The translations under genes and the position numbers were made by a program. This document shows, piece by piece, positions 4,172 through 32,000 of a DNA stretch of 32,000 nucleotides (the first letter of the stretch is position 1; each line of letters opens with the position of its first letter). The notes below the pieces were generated by a model. That model saw only the letters and a program-made list of their open reading frames with translations. It was not told the DNA's origin and did no database searches. The DNA is from an uncultured Candidatus Saccharibacteria bacterium (GTDB lineage Bacteria; Patescibacteriota; UBA1384; XYA2-FULL-43-10; 1-14-0-10-43-13), in NCBI GenBank assembly GCA_964543385.1, contig CAZIYE010000001.1:390001-422000 (forward strand), written 5' to 3'.

Positions 4172-4379
4172 CACATTTAAAAAAACCAGGCCGCCACTTA
4201 CTTGATTTCGGCGGCAGCCTGGAGATGGGAAGGCGGGACCATTCCTCGTCTTCATCGGAGACGAACTCGTGTTCGTCGCTACGGCCGAGGGGCCGTGTCT
4301 GTTGCCCTTGCTTCGGGCAATCGGCGGTATCCATGCAGGAGCACGGACACAGATCATCATCGCGGCCACAGTCGGCCAT
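4122..4379 (-). CDS. Hypothetical small acidic Cys-rich protein (85 aa as drawn; 3' end uncertain)
   Basis: ATG at 4379 lies 7 nt after AAGGGGGA. Product is MADCGRDDDLCPCSCMDTADCP... Hand-counted GC1/GC2/GC3 over the first 57 codons is about 67/51/72%, a coding-like pattern. Caveat: no in-frame stop occurs before the terminator at 4179-4222, and the frame only closes 50 nt inside antisense atpG. Confidence 0.4.
   Translation of the reverse strand: MADCGRDDDLCPCSCMDTADCPKQGQQTRPLGRSDEHEFVSDEDEEWSRLPISRLPPKSSKWRPGFFKCATSLLPLRQISQQFHE
4179..4222 (-). terminator. Intrinsic terminator active on the minus strand only
   Basis: Minus strand reads CCAGGCTGCCGCC-(14 nt loop)-GGCGGCCTGG followed by T7. 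On the plus strand the A7 run precedes the stem, so atp transcripts should read through. Confidence 0.6.
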
Positions 4380-4426
4380 AGTGGTGTCCCCCTTTTCGAA
4401 ACGTTGTCCGGAAACCGGATGGGAGA
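4186..4426. other. GC-rich compositional island 1, in the atpG-atpD spacer
   Basis: Abrupt shift from AT-rich backbone to about 60% GC sequence. All-frame ORFs appear here because stop codons are depleted. Confidence 0.8.
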
Positions 4427-4427
4427 T

Positions 4428-4456
4428 ACAATAAAATAAATTAGTTAATATGTCAA
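4428..4456 (-). promoter_or_regulatory. Sigma70-like promoter for the island-1 ORF
   Basis: Minus strand has TTGACA (4456-4451), a 17-nt spacer and TATTGT (4433-4428). It lies in AT-rich DNA directly next to the atpD SD. AT-rich DNA produces such hexamers by chance. Confidence 0.35.
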
Positions 4457-4467
4457 TAAGGAGATAG

Positions 4468-5832
4468 ATGCAAACAGGAAAAATCACACAGGTTATCGGC
4501 GCAGTTATTGATGCCAAATTTGAGGATAAACTTCCAAAAATTTATGATGCGTTGGAATGTAAATTAAACGATAAGCGTCTCGTCTTTGAAGTTCAGCAAC
4601 ACTTAGATGACAAAACCGTCCGAGCTGTAGCAATGAGCTCGACAGACGGCTTACAACGAGGAACAGAACTAGTCAACACGGAAAAGCCGATCTCTGTTCC
4701 TGTGGGGGCAGAATCACTAGGCCGAATGTTTAATGTTATCGGCGAACCGATTGATGGCAAAGAAGCACCAAAAAATAAGACTTTTTATCCTATTCATAGA
4801 CCATCTCCTGAATTCTCGGAGCAAAACACCAAGACCGAGATTTTCGAAACAGGAATTAAAGTTATCGATCTGATCGCTCCAATCACAAAAGGTGGTAAAG
4901 TAGGCCTCTTTGGCGGTGCTGGTGTTGGCAAAACCGTTTTAATCACTGAACTAATTCGCAATATTGCCTCCGAACATTCAGGCACATCAGTTTTCGCCGG
5001 CGTAGGAGAAAGAACTCGTGAAGGTAATGATCTCTATAACGAGATGAAAGAGTCAGGTGTTTTAGATAAGACTGCTCTCGTTTTTGGTCAGATGAATGAA
5101 CCCCCTGGAGCTCGTATGCGTGTTGCTCTGTCAGGACTTGCCCAAGCTGAATATTTCCGAGACGAGGGCAAAGACGTGCTTTTATTTATTGACAATATCT
5201 TTCGTTTTACCCAAGCTGGTTCAGAAGTATCTACTCTCCTCGGCCGTATGCCTTCAGCAGTAGGTTATCAGCCTACCCTTGCTGAGGAAATGGGCAACCT
5301 TCAGGAAAGAATTACCTCTACAAAGAAGGGTTCTATCACCTCCGTTCAAGCTGTCTATGTACCTGCTGATGATCTAACTGATCCAGCACCAGCCACTACC
5401 TTTGCCCACTTGGATTCAACTATCGTGCTAGAGAGAAGTCTGGCTGAACTAGGTATTTATCCTGCTGTTGATCCCCTTTCTTCTACGTCAGCTATTCTTG
5501 ACCCTAACGTTGTTGGTATCGAGCACTATACGGTCGCTCGTGAAGTTCAGAGGTTACTACAAAGATATAAAGATCTTCAAGACATCATCGCAATTCTTGG
5601 CATGGAAGAGCTCTCCGATGATGATAAACTTACAGTCTCACGAGCACGAAAAATTCAACGTTTCTTATCACAGCCTTTCCATGTTGCCGAAGTATTCTCC
5701 GGCATCCCTGGTGTCTACGTGACGTTAAAAGACACGATTGCCGGCTTTAAAGAAATCATCGACGGTAAGCATGATAACAAAGCAGAAACAGAGTTTTATA
5801 TGAAAGGAAATATCTCAGAAGTAGGAAAATAG
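4468..5832 (+). CDS. atpD: F-type ATP synthase F1 subunit beta
   Basis: 454 aa. Walker A GGAGVGKT. Conserved blocks [21 protein letters not shown] and [18 protein letters not shown] is AAGGAG. Confidence 0.98.
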
Positions 5833-5836
5833 GAAT

Positions 5837-5882
5837 CCCATCCAAAGTGTATCGGCCGAAACCGATCGACCCTAAGGATGGG
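5837..5882 (-). terminator. Compound hairpin downstream of the island-2 ORF; possible minus-strand terminator
   Basis: Outer stem is CCCATCC/GGATGGG and inner stem is ATCGG/CCGAT. On the minus strand it is followed by ATTCCTATTTTCC. There is no T-tract on the plus strand. Confidence 0.35.
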
Positions 5883-5908
5883 CGGAATTGTATGGCTGTT
5901 CCCCTTCA

Positions 5909-6118
5909 TTACTTCTTCTTTGGCCCTTTTGGCGGAACCGAAGGAAGATGTATCTTCGAGAAGCATCCAAGCCGTGCCATGATGATGATAACCATCACTA
6001 TTACGGCTACTGCCGGAGTAATTGCGCAGGCAAGTCCCATCTTTAGATAGATCAAGATAGCCTCCGCTATCGCGGCCATGCCAAGCGTAATCAGCAAGTC
6101 TCTGAGAATCGGATCCAT
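5909..6118 (-). CDS. Hypothetical 69-aa two-TM membrane protein with a Lys-rich tail (holin-like or type I toxin-like architecture)
   Basis: ATG at 6118 lies 4 nt after GGGGGGTGA. Product is MDPILRDLLITLGMAAIAEAILIYLKMGLACAITPAVAVIVMVIIIMARLGCFSKIHLPSVPPKGPKKK. It has two hydrophobic helices and a basic C-terminus. Confidence 0.5.
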   Translation of the reverse strand: MDPILRDLLITLGMAAIAEAILIYLKMGLACAITPAVAVIVMVIIIMARLGCFSKIHLPSVPPKGPKKK

Positions 6119-30509: not shown

Positions 30510-30520
30510 TTAGTAAACAT

Positions 30521-30574
30521 AAAACGAAAACGAGCCCTGGTACATCATGTACACAGGGCCCGCTCGGATTTTTG
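30521..30574. terminator. Stem-loop terminator at the left border of island 4, with T-tracts on both strands
   Basis: Imperfect stem CGAGCCCTGGTACAT / ATGTACACAGGGCCCGCTCG. It is flanked by AAAACGAAAA on the left (GTTTTCGTTTT on the minus strand) and GATTTTT on the right. Confidence 0.65.
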
Positions 30575-31843
30575 ACCTGAGCGCGAACGCCCGGGTCATC
30601 TCCCACTTCCTTTGTTCAGCTCCACCAGCGGTCCGATGACCACCTTCTGGAGCATGATCCTACGATTCTCGGGGTTCCGCAGCCTCCAGCTGTCTCCTCC
30701 CAGGAATCGGCGCTGCTCAGCAGCAGACAGCCCCTTCCAGCGTGGATCCTTCGCCTGAGCGGCGATCTCAGCATCGCTGTTTGGGACGCCGCACTCGAGT
30801 AGCACCTTGTTCTCGATCGTGTTATAACCACCGAGAACATCGAAGGTCTTTGCTAAAGTGCAGTTGACTGGCTTGCCGAACCGTTTCCGGCCATAGCCCT
30901 GATCAAGCAGAACATTCTCGATCAGTCCGGCCAGTTGTCCAGTGTTACCTCGTCGGTGACACTCACGCAGCCCTGACCAACCATTGCTACCCAACGAGTC
31001 CACATGGAGCTCGACGAATGCACTAGTGGTACAGTTCTGGTGATCAGACTGGGCTTGGGCAGCAGCTTTCGCTCGGTCGACTGTGTCAGAGGAGTTCTGC
31101 ATGGGGTTTCCCCCATATAAGACAGCCTCTTTTGGCAACGGCAGAGGATCTTTTGGCCCAGTCACCTGGTCCATTGATTCAGCCTCGGCCGCATATACCA
31201 CAGTCGCACCGAGAGCTTCAGCCATCAGGCCAAGCTCACGCGCCATCCGATAGGTATAGGCGGCTTCCCAGTAGGCTTCTCCGTCGAATACCCAAGAGCA
31301 TCCGACGTCGAGACCATAACTGGTTACAGCATCACGGCCACCATGACCGGGGCTAACGACCAGCAACTGACCCAATAGGGCGTTCTGGCCATATTGCGCT
31401 ACGATTGCCCTACGCTCTGCTTCGGAGAAGCTGAGTTTGGGGCCTCGGGGCAGAAGTTTGCCAAGGCCTTGCGGCTCCTGGGGCTCCTGCACAGTCGTGC
31501 CGGGCTTTACAGCCGGCTTGTGCTGGTTCCACGGGTGCCACAAGAGCACGCCGAGAACCAACAACAGGAAAAGACTTGCCATGATAACGCCGAAGCGGTT
31601 CTTAGCATAGTTTTCTGCATAGGAACTACCGAACCCTGCAAAGAACGCAATGACTGCCGCCATCAGGGCTTCGAGGACCATCCACAGGCCCTGCAAAAAT
31701 GCGAGGGCTTTGGGGTGGCGGCGCCCGAAGGTCGCCCAACGCTGTTGAATCCGCATGATTTTTCTCCTTTTCAGAGCTGCCACGTGCGGTTGGACAGCTC
31801 AAGTGTTCTTCTCGCCGGATGTGTAGAATTTCCAGCGTAGACT
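30531..31843. other. GC-rich compositional island 4
   Basis: About 1.3 kb of clearly GC-rich sequence with sharp AT-rich borders on both sides. Confidence 0.85.
30596..31756 (-). CDS. Membrane-anchored N-acetylmuramoyl-L-alanine amidase-like protein (Amidase_3/MurNAc-LAA-like)
   Basis: I prefer the ATG at 31756, which follows AAAGGAGA. Two N-terminal hydrophobic helices. Motifs VVSPGHGGRD, GEAYWE, ELHVDS and VLLECGVPNSD follow the Zn-amidase pattern GHGG...E...H...E. TGA stop lies 29 nt before the terminator. Confidence 0.55.
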   Translation of the reverse strand: MRIQQRWATFGRRHPKALAFLQGLWMVLEALMAAVIAFFAGFGSSYAENYAKNRFGVIMASLFLLLVLGVLLWHPWNQHKPAVKPGTTVQEPQEPQGLGKLLPRGPKLSFSEAERRAIVAQYGQNALLGQLLVVSPGHGGRDAVTSYGLDVGCSWVFDGEAYWEAAYTYRMARELGLMAEALGATVVYAAEAESMDQVTGPKDPLPLPKEAVLYGGNPMQNSSDTVDRAKAAAQAQSDHQNCTTSAFVELHVDSLGSNGWSGLRECHRRGNTGQLAGLIENVLLDQGYGRKRFGKPVNCTLAKTFDVLGGYNTIENKVLLECGVPNSDAEIAAQAKDPRWKGLSAAEQRRFLGGDSWRLRNPENRRIMLQKVVIGPLVELNKGSGR

Positions 31844-31849
31844 AGGTAT

Positions 31850-31878
31850 ATTATAGCATTTTTATATATAAAAGTCAA
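31850..31878 (-). promoter_or_regulatory. Near-consensus sigma70 promoter driving the amidase-like gene
   Basis: Minus strand has TTGACT (31878-31873), a 17-nt spacer and TATAAT (31855-31850). The leader to the ATG is about 85 nt. Confidence 0.5.
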
Positions 31879-31893
31879 TGGTAAAACATTGAC
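31874..31893. promoter_or_regulatory. Perfect palindrome GTCAATG-N6-CATTGAC spanning both divergent -35 boxes (candidate operator)
   Basis: Read directly: aaGTCAATGgtaaaaCATTGACaa. Confidence 0.5.
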
Positions 31894-31917
31894 AAATAGC
31901 TAATATAGTGATAAAGT
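31889..31917 (+). promoter_or_regulatory. Sigma70-like promoter driving the gene at the right window edge
   Basis: TTGACA (31889-31894), a 17-nt spacer and TAAAGT (31912-31917). Confidence 0.4.
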
Positions 31918-31970
31918 AGCGAGTCGATCAATCCTGATCCGACAACTCTGACACACAGAAGGAGGGCAAC

Positions 31971-32000
31971 ATGCCCCGAAACTCTCGCAGAACACGTCGT
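31971..32000 (+). CDS. 5' end of an unknown GC-rich gene (MPRNSRRTRR...), truncated by the window
   Basis: GGAGGG (31961-31966) lies 4 nt before the ATG. Sequence is GC-rich from 31918 onward. Only 10 codons are visible. Confidence 0.35.
   Translation, partial: MPRNSRRTRR

Follow-up and report, generated by a model that had tools for sequence, protein, structure and literature searches.

GC-rich single-gene islands in an AT-rich Patescibacteria genome, and a predicted peptidoglycan amidase locus with conserved flanks and a variable coding core

Compositionally atypical acquired DNA is classically described as "genomic islets", within the amelioration framework attributed to Lawrence and Ochman. 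Among amidases of the Amidase_3 family, LytH is membrane-bound, depends on a partner, and trims the stem peptides of nascent peptidoglycan (PMC9245657). The genomes of Patescibacteria are tiny, and a life in attachment to other cells is assumed for these bacteria; little is known of how their cell-surface machinery varies. The stretch analyzed here (the window) comprises 32,000 nt of contig CAZIYE010000001.1, positions 390,001-422,000, and harbors five islands rich in guanine and cytosine (GC) within a backbone rich in adenine and thymine (AT); island coordinates are window positions. The reading favored here, to which we assign a probability of about 0.55, is that these islands form a fast-turnover accessory layer, and that the coding cores of islands 4 and 5, a predicted peptidoglycan amidase gene and its divergent neighbor, are exchanged within the clade, from its GC-richer members.

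The GC content is 39.3% for the whole window and 38.0% for the non-island remainder, the backbone. The five islands are listed below, with z-scores calculated against backbone windows of equal length:

4186-4426, minus strand: island 1, GC 60.6%, z = 5.4
5833-6140, minus strand: island 2, GC 50.0%, z = 3.2
27466-27693, plus strand: island 3, GC 64.5%, z = 6.2
30531-31843, minus strand: island 4, GC 57.0%, z = 9.4
31918-32000, plus strand: island 5, GC 54.2%, z = 2.4

In the full set of equal-length backbone windows, none reaches the GC of islands 1, 3, and 4, while ~0.07% reach that of island 2 and 0.9% that of island 5. These last two are the weakest islands, the former with 50% GC and the latter with 83 nt inside the window. 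The edges are sharp: the 40 nt inside typically have a GC fraction of 0.5-0.7 and the 40 nt outside 0.2-0.3, a step of 0.2-0.5. In the amidase gene of island 4, GC at the first, second, and third codon positions (GC1/2/3) is 0.64/0.45/0.62, as compared to ~0.49/0.34/0.33 in backbone genes, and codon choice differs from that of backbone genes as well; the GC excess is therefore not merely a matter of amino-acid composition.

A first-pass annotation of this DNA had described five GC-rich islands with sharp edges, which the computed GC profile, z-scores, and edge contrasts confirm. The slots that it named (atpG/atpD, atpD/atpC, folD/mnmA, and upstream of Phd-IscS-NifU-FolD) were all verified. Shine-Dalgarno (SD)-like sites and open reading frames (ORFs) starting with ATG were found at the islands, hairpin terminators at islands 1, 2, 3, and 4, and the AT-rich flanks contain the best -35/-10 sites, all as announced. 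Also in keeping with it, the islands share no sequence; no integrase, transposase, or recombinase gene was found in the window, nor any shared repeat, terminal inverted repeat (TIR), or target-site duplication (TSD) between or around the islands, TIRs and TSDs being tested at islands 1-3. Its idea of one dispersed, functionally linked set did not hold, as there is no common sequence and presence or absence varies independently among sister genomes. Each island is instead one small self-contained transcription unit. In islands 1, 4, and 5, the three with a predicted promoter, the GC-rich tract begins at the predicted transcription start (~4421, 31843, and 31924, respectively) and ends at the terminator; in islands 2 and 3, a promoter was looked for and not found. 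Units 1 to 3 are all oriented against the flanking operons.

Islands 4 and 5 are transcribed divergently and carry the following features, in which UTR stands for untranslated region and L numbers designate contigs:

30521-30562, minus strand: amidase terminator, hairpin and T-run, with 89% identity to L003 across 89 nt that take in the last codons
30596-31756, minus strand: amidase coding sequence, 386 residues, predicted N-terminal helical membrane anchor (~1-73) followed by the Amidase_3 domain
30613-31490, minus strand: variable core of the amidase gene (linker and catalytic domain), ~880 nt, no DNA similarity to sister alleles, both flanks conserved
31757-31843, minus strand: amidase 5'UTR, 87 nt, conserved with L084, L085, and L003
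31850-31878, minus strand: amidase promoter, TTGACT-17-TATAAT with TG, conserved in sisters
31889-31917, plus strand: promoter of the island-5 gene, TTGACA-17-TAAAGT with TG, divergent from the amidase
31918-32000, plus strand: content of island 5, namely 5'UTR, ribosome-binding site (RBS), and first 10 codons (ATG at 31971, MPRNSRRTRR)

The gene that starts in island 5, p354, is complete on a contig of the same genome (L101, 3732-4796); it encodes 354 residues, with 52% GC and a GC3 of 0.61, and its neighbors there are TatD (GC3 0.34) and EamA (GC3 0.33).

The order TatD, p354-like gene (leftward), amidase (rightward), and Phd-IscS-NifU-FolD is found, in overlapping parts, in L001, L003, L084, L085, and L086, the p354-like gene being absent from L001. 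With the last four of these contigs, DNA identity amounts to ~75-89% in both promoters, the 5'UTR, the N-terminal anchor, and the last codons with the terminator. Since promoter, 5'UTR, N-terminal part, and terminator are conserved with the sisters, the locus is not a fresh insertion. Protein identities reveal a strong discordance between the island genes and their neighbors, with TatD at 92-93% and the amidase at 37-52% overall:

Window and L084: IscS, NifU, and FolD 79-88%, amidase 41%
Window and L003 or L085: TatD 92-93%, amidase 39-41%, p354-like protein 57-70%
L003 and L085: TatD 92%, amidase 52%, p354-like protein 52%
L001 and L084: backbone proteins ~62%, amidase 60%

The window amidase is itself a mosaic. 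Its anchor is 62% identical to that of L003, with the same codon at 59% of the identical residues, while its catalytic part is ~36% identical; conversely, its last third (residues 273-386) shares 90% protein identity with a fragment encoded by L088, an independent Joint Genome Institute (JGI) contig from a related organism. Synonymous divergence (dS) between the window and L088 is 0.78 for the amidase, 2.4 for Phd, and saturated for IscS; between the window and L003 it is 1.2 for p354, 1.1 for the amidase N-terminus, and saturated for TatD. The lower dS of the island genes as compared to their core neighbors argues for an exchange of cassettes between lineages whose backbones had already diverged. 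We regard islands 4 and 5 as allelic replacements at a conserved locus, and not as insertions.

Other alleles illustrate how variable this locus is. In L093, the amidase is deleted except for the last ~15 codons and the terminator. In L089 and L091, a different gene of 216 codons occupies the amidase slot, with 59% GC and a GC3 of 0.72-0.75; the L089 protein has no usable match in the family libraries Pfam, PHROGs, NCBIfam, and PADLOC. To note, L093 also carries at the amidase terminator a GC-rich insertion of ~290 nt (590-907) with TIRs CCACCCCCAACCCCTCC and GGAGGTTGGGTGGGGG, flanked by a 15-16-nt duplication (ATAAACGAAAACGAGC); this element is absent from the window. EamA, beside TatD, is 46% identical between L101 (2006-2848) and L003 (49-888), where TatD is 92% identical, and its GC3 of 0.33 corresponds to backbone GC. 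EamA thus represents a gene that is hypervariable or has been replaced, yet has no elevated GC.

The product of island 4 is modeled as a membrane-anchored Amidase_3 peptidoglycan amidase. Taken alone, the window protein scores 25.2 bits against PF01520 (Amidase_3), slightly below the cutoff of 27 (E = 1.9e-5). In a set of 5.8 billion proteins it finds ~8 relatives, each with a PF01520 annotation; two have a named source, a Patescibacteria metagenome-assembled genome (MAG) and "bacterium ADurb.Bin212", and the four closest with contigs reaching the flanks exhibit the same gene neighborhood. A profile of the family matches LytH (7tj4; E = 5.8e-9), AmiC2, Cwp6, and CwlD. The AlphaFold2 model has a predicted local distance difference test (pLDDT) score of 68, the catalytic core being mostly at 70-90, and its Foldseek matches are Rv3717/Ami1, LytH, AmiC2, CwlD, CwlV, and AmiB/C (E from 5e-8 to 1e-3). 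Residues H138 (PGHGG), E164 (EAAYTY), H251 (LHVDS), and E321 (LLECG) are invariant in the seven-sequence family alignment; by analogy with other members of this family, we take the first three to be the zinc ligands and E321 the catalytic glutamate. At the N-terminus, helices are predicted at residues 2-73, in a hydrophobic sequence conserved in the family. The divergence from L088 (dN 0.058 for non-synonymous sites, dN/dS ~0.07) indicates purifying selection on the amidase gene. By analogy with LytH, the amidase most likely trims stem peptides from peptidoglycan near the membrane.

The 5'UTR of the amidase gene, examined in the window and in L084, L085, L003, and L001, contains a hairpin, GAGCTGTC...GGCAGCTC, immediately ahead of the RBS, in which a pair is changed by G-to-A and C-to-T in L084 and L085. 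A conserved CGCAUG in the same 5'UTR can pair with the start-codon region. Judging from sequence, the hairpin and CGCAUG may control translation; when the amidase 5'UTRs are folded to a consensus, all pairs are invariant, which gives no covariation evidence. As for p354, it possesses an N-terminal membrane helix, and neither p354 nor p392 has a usable match in the four family libraries named above. A role of p354 as the partner of the amidase is a matter of speculation.

Islands 1 to 3 are orphans. Their features are the following:

4122-4379, minus strand: island-1 ORF, 85 residues (MADCGRDDDLCPCSC...), ATG at 4379 with the RBS GGGGGA upstream; Cys-rich and acidic
4179-4223, minus strand: island-1 terminator, 12-bp hairpin then U-run, 8-15 nt from the atpG stop codon
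4428-4456, minus strand: predicted island-1 promoter, TTGACA-17-TATTGT
5837-5882, minus strand: island-2 3' stem-loop, outer stem CCCATCC...GGATGGG, 5 nt past the atpD stop codon, weak T-rich tail
5909-6118, minus strand: island-2 ORF, 69 residues from ATG (MDPILRDLLITLG...), antisense to the atp operon
27487-27654, plus strand: island-3 ORF, 55 residues (MINPCLRAQLRR...CQNC...C-APAN-C), GGAGG upstream, GC3 0.73, converging on folD
27667-27701, plus strand: intrinsic terminator of island 3, directly adjacent to the folD stop codon; stem of 10 bp, of which 8 are GC pairs, followed by TTCTTTTT

In island 1, the transcription start implied by the promoter coincides with the right edge of the island (~4421-4426). 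The ORF meets no stop codon within the island and continues past the terminator, antisense to the 3' end of atpG; its GC1/2/3 within the island is 0.62/0.53/0.69, and its coding status is uncertain. The island-2 ORF (GC1/2/3 of 0.51/0.39/0.56) exhibits two hydrophobic stretches that, judged by eye, are possible membrane helices. The island-3 ORF weakly resembles a 43-residue Cys ORF of L084 (pairwise E = 0.026), located at the same position and in the same orientation, with which it has a CxxC...C-A-x-x-N-C motif in common. No homologue was found for the ORFs of islands 1 and 2; HMMER matches of the island-3 ORF to tandem-repeat and HYR-repeat proteins were judged spurious, their E-values being inflated by many repeats. 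Pfam, PHROGs, NCBIfam, and PADLOC returned nothing usable for the three small ORFs, the other reading frames of islands 1-3 have no Pfam match, and no genes were predicted in these islands by the gene caller used for the Logan contigs. With Rfam 15, only the tRNA-Leu passes the gathering threshold in the window; when the threshold is relaxed to E <= 1, islands 1 and 2 still have no match, and a single match at chance level overlaps island 3. As compared to shuffled controls, the predicted RNA fold is more stable in island 1 (z = -4.76) and island 3 (z = -2.79), while island 2 has no excess structure (z = -0.79).

The first-pass annotation had pointed to a comparison of these spacers across sister genomes, where they prove to be either empty or occupied by unrelated small genes. 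The atpG/atpD spacer measures 36-95 nt in L005, L007, and L008 and holds a four-helix-bundle gene in L004 and L006. The atpD/atpC spacer is ~100 nt long in L005 and L006; in L004, L007, and L008 it contains ORFs of 66-73 residues on the operon strand, with 21-40% GC and two hydrophobic stretches, unrelated in sequence to island 2. The folD and mnmA genes abut or overlap in L090 and L091, and other small antisense ORFs are found between them in L084 and L001. Among the sister atp-operon spacers, those at L004 3296-3970 and 5050-5436, L006 1173-1532, L007 3130-3456, and L005 3076-4000 hold unrelated small genes; by eye, these include a GIY-YIG-like gene, a 224-residue ORF, and genes for four-helix-bundle proteins that resemble the "23S rRNA intervening sequence protein", and the L005 spacer contains GC-rich repeat patches as well. 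Islands 1 to 3 would be lineage-specific orphan mini-genes, possibly small RNAs (sRNAs), and operon spacers would be places where small genes can generally land across the clade.

Where does the high GC come from? TatD has a GC3 of 0.34 in this genome (L101 2859-3650), 0.40 in L085 (322-1113), and 0.54 in L003 (901-1692), with 92-93% protein identity and saturated synonymous sites. In L003, the amidase/p354 pair has a GC3 of 0.53-0.60, close to the L003 backbone GC, and the p354 and amidase anchor of the present genome are most similar to the L003 alleles. Given this GC-richer backbone and these L003-like alleles, import from GC-richer members of the clade explains much of the contrast. The alleles of islands 4 and 5 would thereby derive from such members, and the conserved promoters, 5'UTR, anchor, and terminator would act as recombination anchors for the swapping of coding cores. 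It has been reported that the transfers detected into Patescibacteria come mostly from other Patescibacteria (PMC12455944). As ComEA is encoded in the window, the DNA may enter by natural transformation, a process reported to have been demonstrated in Saccharibacteria (PMC10187176). The horizontal acquisition suggested by the first-pass annotation is thus upheld for islands 4 and 5, through discordant divergence and lower dS, with a clade pool favored over the host or phage donor that it had in mind; its qualification of the islands as un-ameliorated is doubtful, the locus being GC-elevated in every sister genome examined.

Several points weigh against exchange from GC-richer clade members. 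A donor sequence was found for no island, and the catalytic core of the amidase has no close relative other than the L088 fragment. The dS values are crude, being Nei-Gojobori estimates on short, compositionally skewed genes. In every relative examined, the amidase locus is GC-elevated, by ~0.15 in GC3 (L001, L084, L085). Polarized third-position changes in the L084, L085, and L086 amidases comprise 62 strong-to-weak and 52 weak-to-strong events, where ~72:42 would be expected under decay toward the backbone (binomial p ~0.04); such near-balanced substitutions are more in line with a GC level that is maintained than with the decay of a donor signature. As a rule, accessory and mobile DNA has a higher AT content than the genome that carries it, and the direction found here is atypical. 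For islands 1-3, the status of the small ORFs as coding genes is unproven, and their codon-position GC differences are calculated on ~55-64 codons per ORF. Finally, the flanking core genes keep the backbone GC3 up to their ends, without spill-over, so that islands 1-3 did not arrive via homologous recombination anchored in those genes, a route that was rejected on this ground.

The alternatives differ widely in plausibility. The sharp edges and foreign-looking composition could be those of an assembly chimera or of engineered inserts, as the first-pass annotation had envisaged. The genome is present, however, in Logan assemblies from at least five runs (SRR12261223, -24, -25, -26, and -27), and the matching contigs are as follows:

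L096 (SRR12261227): window 1-1571, 100% identity, no island
L097 (SRR12261223): window 1543-13832, 100% identity, islands 1 and 2
L098 (SRR12261226): window 2338-13139, 100% identity, islands 1 and 2
L099 (SRR12261225): window 3346-13832, 100% identity, islands 1 and 2
L100 (SRR12261224): window 19700-30472, 100% identity, island 3
L101 (SRR12261224): window 30460-32000 and beyond, 100% identity, islands 4 and 5

Together they cover 1-13832, 19700-30472, and 30460-32000, hence all five islands and their edges. L100 and L101 both end in a 12-nt tandem repeat (30443-30489) and overlap by 13 nt; a Logan contig end is also located at another tandem repeat (1542-1572). No single contig joining the amidase terminator to Phd was found, an exact look-up of Phd giving the same contig only; this adjacency is supported by sister synteny and by L088, in which AT-rich Phd and IscS (39% GC) come after a GC-rich amidase 3' end (58% GC, GC3 0.66) with its terminator, an equivalent junction. 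Moreover, the regulatory DNA runs continuously into the GC-rich amidase coding sequence and is conserved in sister genomes. Chimerism is refuted, short of all these assemblies having one artefact in common, and its probability is negligible. It is also very unlikely that the islands are un-ameliorated DNA of a high-GC host bacterium, or of its phage, acquired by an epibiont. Such an origin would suit a Patescibacteria genome with ComEA, the higher GC of the islands, and the lack of relatives of islands 1-3 anywhere searched. It is not supported by the data, and is disfavored for islands 4 and 5: of the closest relatives of the amidase, a Patescibacteria MAG is the only one with a name, the four nearest whose contigs extend into the flanks are syntenic, regulatory DNA is conserved, phage and plasmid BLAST searches (DNA and protein) and viral-contig scans gave no match, and no alternative frame of islands 1-3 matches Pfam, as a fragment of a host gene might.

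Two further explanations do without a donor or without proteins. The GC could be raised and kept in place, either by GC-biased gene conversion (gBGC) at recombination hot spots or by selection for GC-rich, highly structured transcripts of potentially toxic envelope proteins. This is unlikely, even if the amidase/p354 locus is clearly recombinogenic and GC-elevated in all relatives irrespective of backbone GC, its third-position substitutions in L084, L085, and L086 are near equilibrium at a GC3 of ~0.46, the GC-rich tract coincides with the predicted transcript in islands 1, 4, and 5, and the island-1 RNA folds far better than its shuffles. Against it, EamA is equally hypervariable and yet keeps backbone GC, the lower dS of the island genes indicates imports, these genes are near the backbone GC of the genome in L003, and a GC3 shift of 0.3 far exceeds the gBGC effects reported in bacteria. 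The more specific proposal that, in this clade, an active, locus-restricted process (extreme gBGC at recombination hot spots, or selection for GC-rich transcripts) holds a specific set of envelope and accessory units at ~55-65% GC in genomes of 38-46% GC is unlikely as well; if true, the tracts would represent a type of compositional compartment new to bacterial genomes, owing nothing to donor ancestry. As to islands 1, 3, and perhaps 2, they might be structured small-RNA genes and not protein genes, GC-rich intergenic DNA in an AT-rich genome being the classic signature exploited in screens of intergenic regions by GC and length. The terminator present in each, the promoter predicted for island 1, the folding of islands 1 and 3, the missing stop codon ahead of the island-1 terminator, and the failure of the gene caller and of the searches for protein homologues are all compatible with this possibility. 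It is nonetheless improbable, in view of the well-placed SD and ATG in each, of an ORF-frame GC in the order GC3 > GC1 > GC2, of the motif and position in common with the L084 ORF, of the absence of any Rfam match even at E <= 1, and of the unstructured island 2.

The backbone surrounding the islands is an AT-rich Berkelbacteria-like Patescibacteria genome. Its genes comprise atpBEFHAGDC and those of GlmS, a histidine kinase, MiaA, ABC transporters, DUF2207, TerC, ComEA, RecG, MnmA, FolD, NifU, IscS, and a Phd-type antitoxin. The nearest AtpG relatives are from Candidatus Berkelbacteria and Saccharibacteria MAGs (57-71% identity), and the order TatD-amidase-Phd-IscS-NifU-FolD-MnmA-RecG-ComEA is syntenic with the 868-kb Patescibacteria contig L001. 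Two other GC peaks are trivial: the one at 17601-17779 (up to 64%), rejected as an island, is the poly-Gly C-terminal tail of the DUF2207 membrane protein, and the one at 19094-19177 is the tRNA-Leu. The run of Gly codons consists of GGTGGTGGTGGC...GGCGGAGGG repeats, with a terminator after it. The Phd/YefM-type antitoxin gene (30217-30426) heads the IscS-NifU-FolD operon, and no toxin gene is recognizable beside it; this arrangement is conserved in all relatives examined. The promoter of this operon (TTGACA-17-TATATT, 30509-30481) harbors the perfect 12-nt tandem repeat mentioned above (30443-30489; GTAATATAACAA, 3.9 copies). As this unit occurs in 2 copies in L001 and in the sister genomes, the repeat looks like an expanded operator array. 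A perfect 7-nt repeat (CAATATT, 4.4 copies, 1542-1572) is located within the atpH (OSCP) ORF (1282-1677); its unit not being a multiple of 3, copy-number slippage would shift the atpH frame. Other GC-elevated ORFs were observed in AT-richer surroundings as well: a cut ORF beyond an aminoacyl-tRNA synthetase gene in the same genome (L101 3-326, GC3 0.63), a lipoprotein-like ORF of 149 residues (L095 156-602, GC3 0.75), and an ORF of 198 residues beside a distant amidase homologue (L087 167-763, GC3 0.75).

In kind, these events are ordinary, being horizontal exchange and allelic replacement. What is unusual is the single-gene units devoid of mobility functions, the GC-rich direction, and the clade-wide GC offset without clear amelioration. 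The amidase locus provides a clean example of conserved regulatory flanks around a coding core exchanged between lineages whose neighbor protein is 92-93% identical, and the atp and folD/mnmA slots one of operon spacers as landing sites for single mini-genes without mobility genes. The usual rule is reversed, the accessory DNA being GC-richer than the core without clear amelioration, and this reversed direction offers a testable handle on whether gBGC or selection shapes composition in these genomes.

A comparison with described systems helps to situate these islands. They resemble the genomic islets by their sharp edges, the lineage-specific content of their slots, and a codon usage unlike that of the backbone. 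However, each is a single tiny gene (0.23-1.3 kb) without integrase, tRNA target, direct repeat, or TIR, all are GC-richer than the genome, and islands 4 and 5 are resident with conserved regulatory flanks. A classical genomic island or integrative element was rejected for want of an integrase and of flanking repeats, the tRNA-Leu being at least ~8 kb from any island; a miniature inverted-repeat transposable element (MITE) or insertion sequence (IS)-type element was likewise rejected, islands 1-3 having no TIR or TSD and the TIR- and TSD-bearing element of L093 being absent from the window. Neither do the islands form a phage lysis cassette of endolysin and holin, since the amidase has no PHROG match and no phage or viral relatives; the ORF with hydrophobic stretches of island 2 is located 24 kb away from it. 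With GC-rich structured non-coding RNA genes, the islands share the intergenic GC-rich tract with its own terminator and, in island 1, a strong predicted folding, but they differ by the lack of an Rfam match and by an ORF with SD, ATG, and coding-like GC periodicity.

In architecture, the predicted amidase is closest, among studied enzymes, to Staphylococcus aureus LytH, which has ActH as its activator (7tj4; PMC9245657): both amidases are membrane-anchored Amidase_3 proteins, and LytH is the best profile match as well as a strong fold match. Here, however, the anchor is a long helical segment of ~73 residues, a Pfam scan of the window protein (E <= 0.1) gave Amidase_3 only and no SH3 domain, and a 25-residue insertion precedes the conserved DSWRLRN motif. 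An ActH-like partner with tetratricopeptide repeats (TPRs) was not identified, and the divergent partner proteins have no Pfam, NCBIfam, or TPR match. Mycobacterial Ami1/Rv3717 (4m6g, 7agm) are the top Foldseek matches of the modeled catalytic domain (E = 5e-8, template-modeling score on the target of ~0.6), with ~15% sequence identity and, unlike the window protein, no N-terminal membrane domain.

Finally, the arrangement of islands 4 and 5 is reminiscent of hypervariable loci recombined between conserved flanks, such as the capsule and O-antigen loci or mosaic cell-wall genes. Conserved flanks around a non-homologous core, discordant divergence, in-gene mosaic breakpoints, and a deletion allele (L093) are the common traits. 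In the present case, what is swapped amounts in essence to a single catalytic domain or gene pair, bordered by the promoter, the 5'UTR, and the membrane anchor at one end and by the terminator at the other, and the setting is the ultra-small genome of a Patescibacteria.

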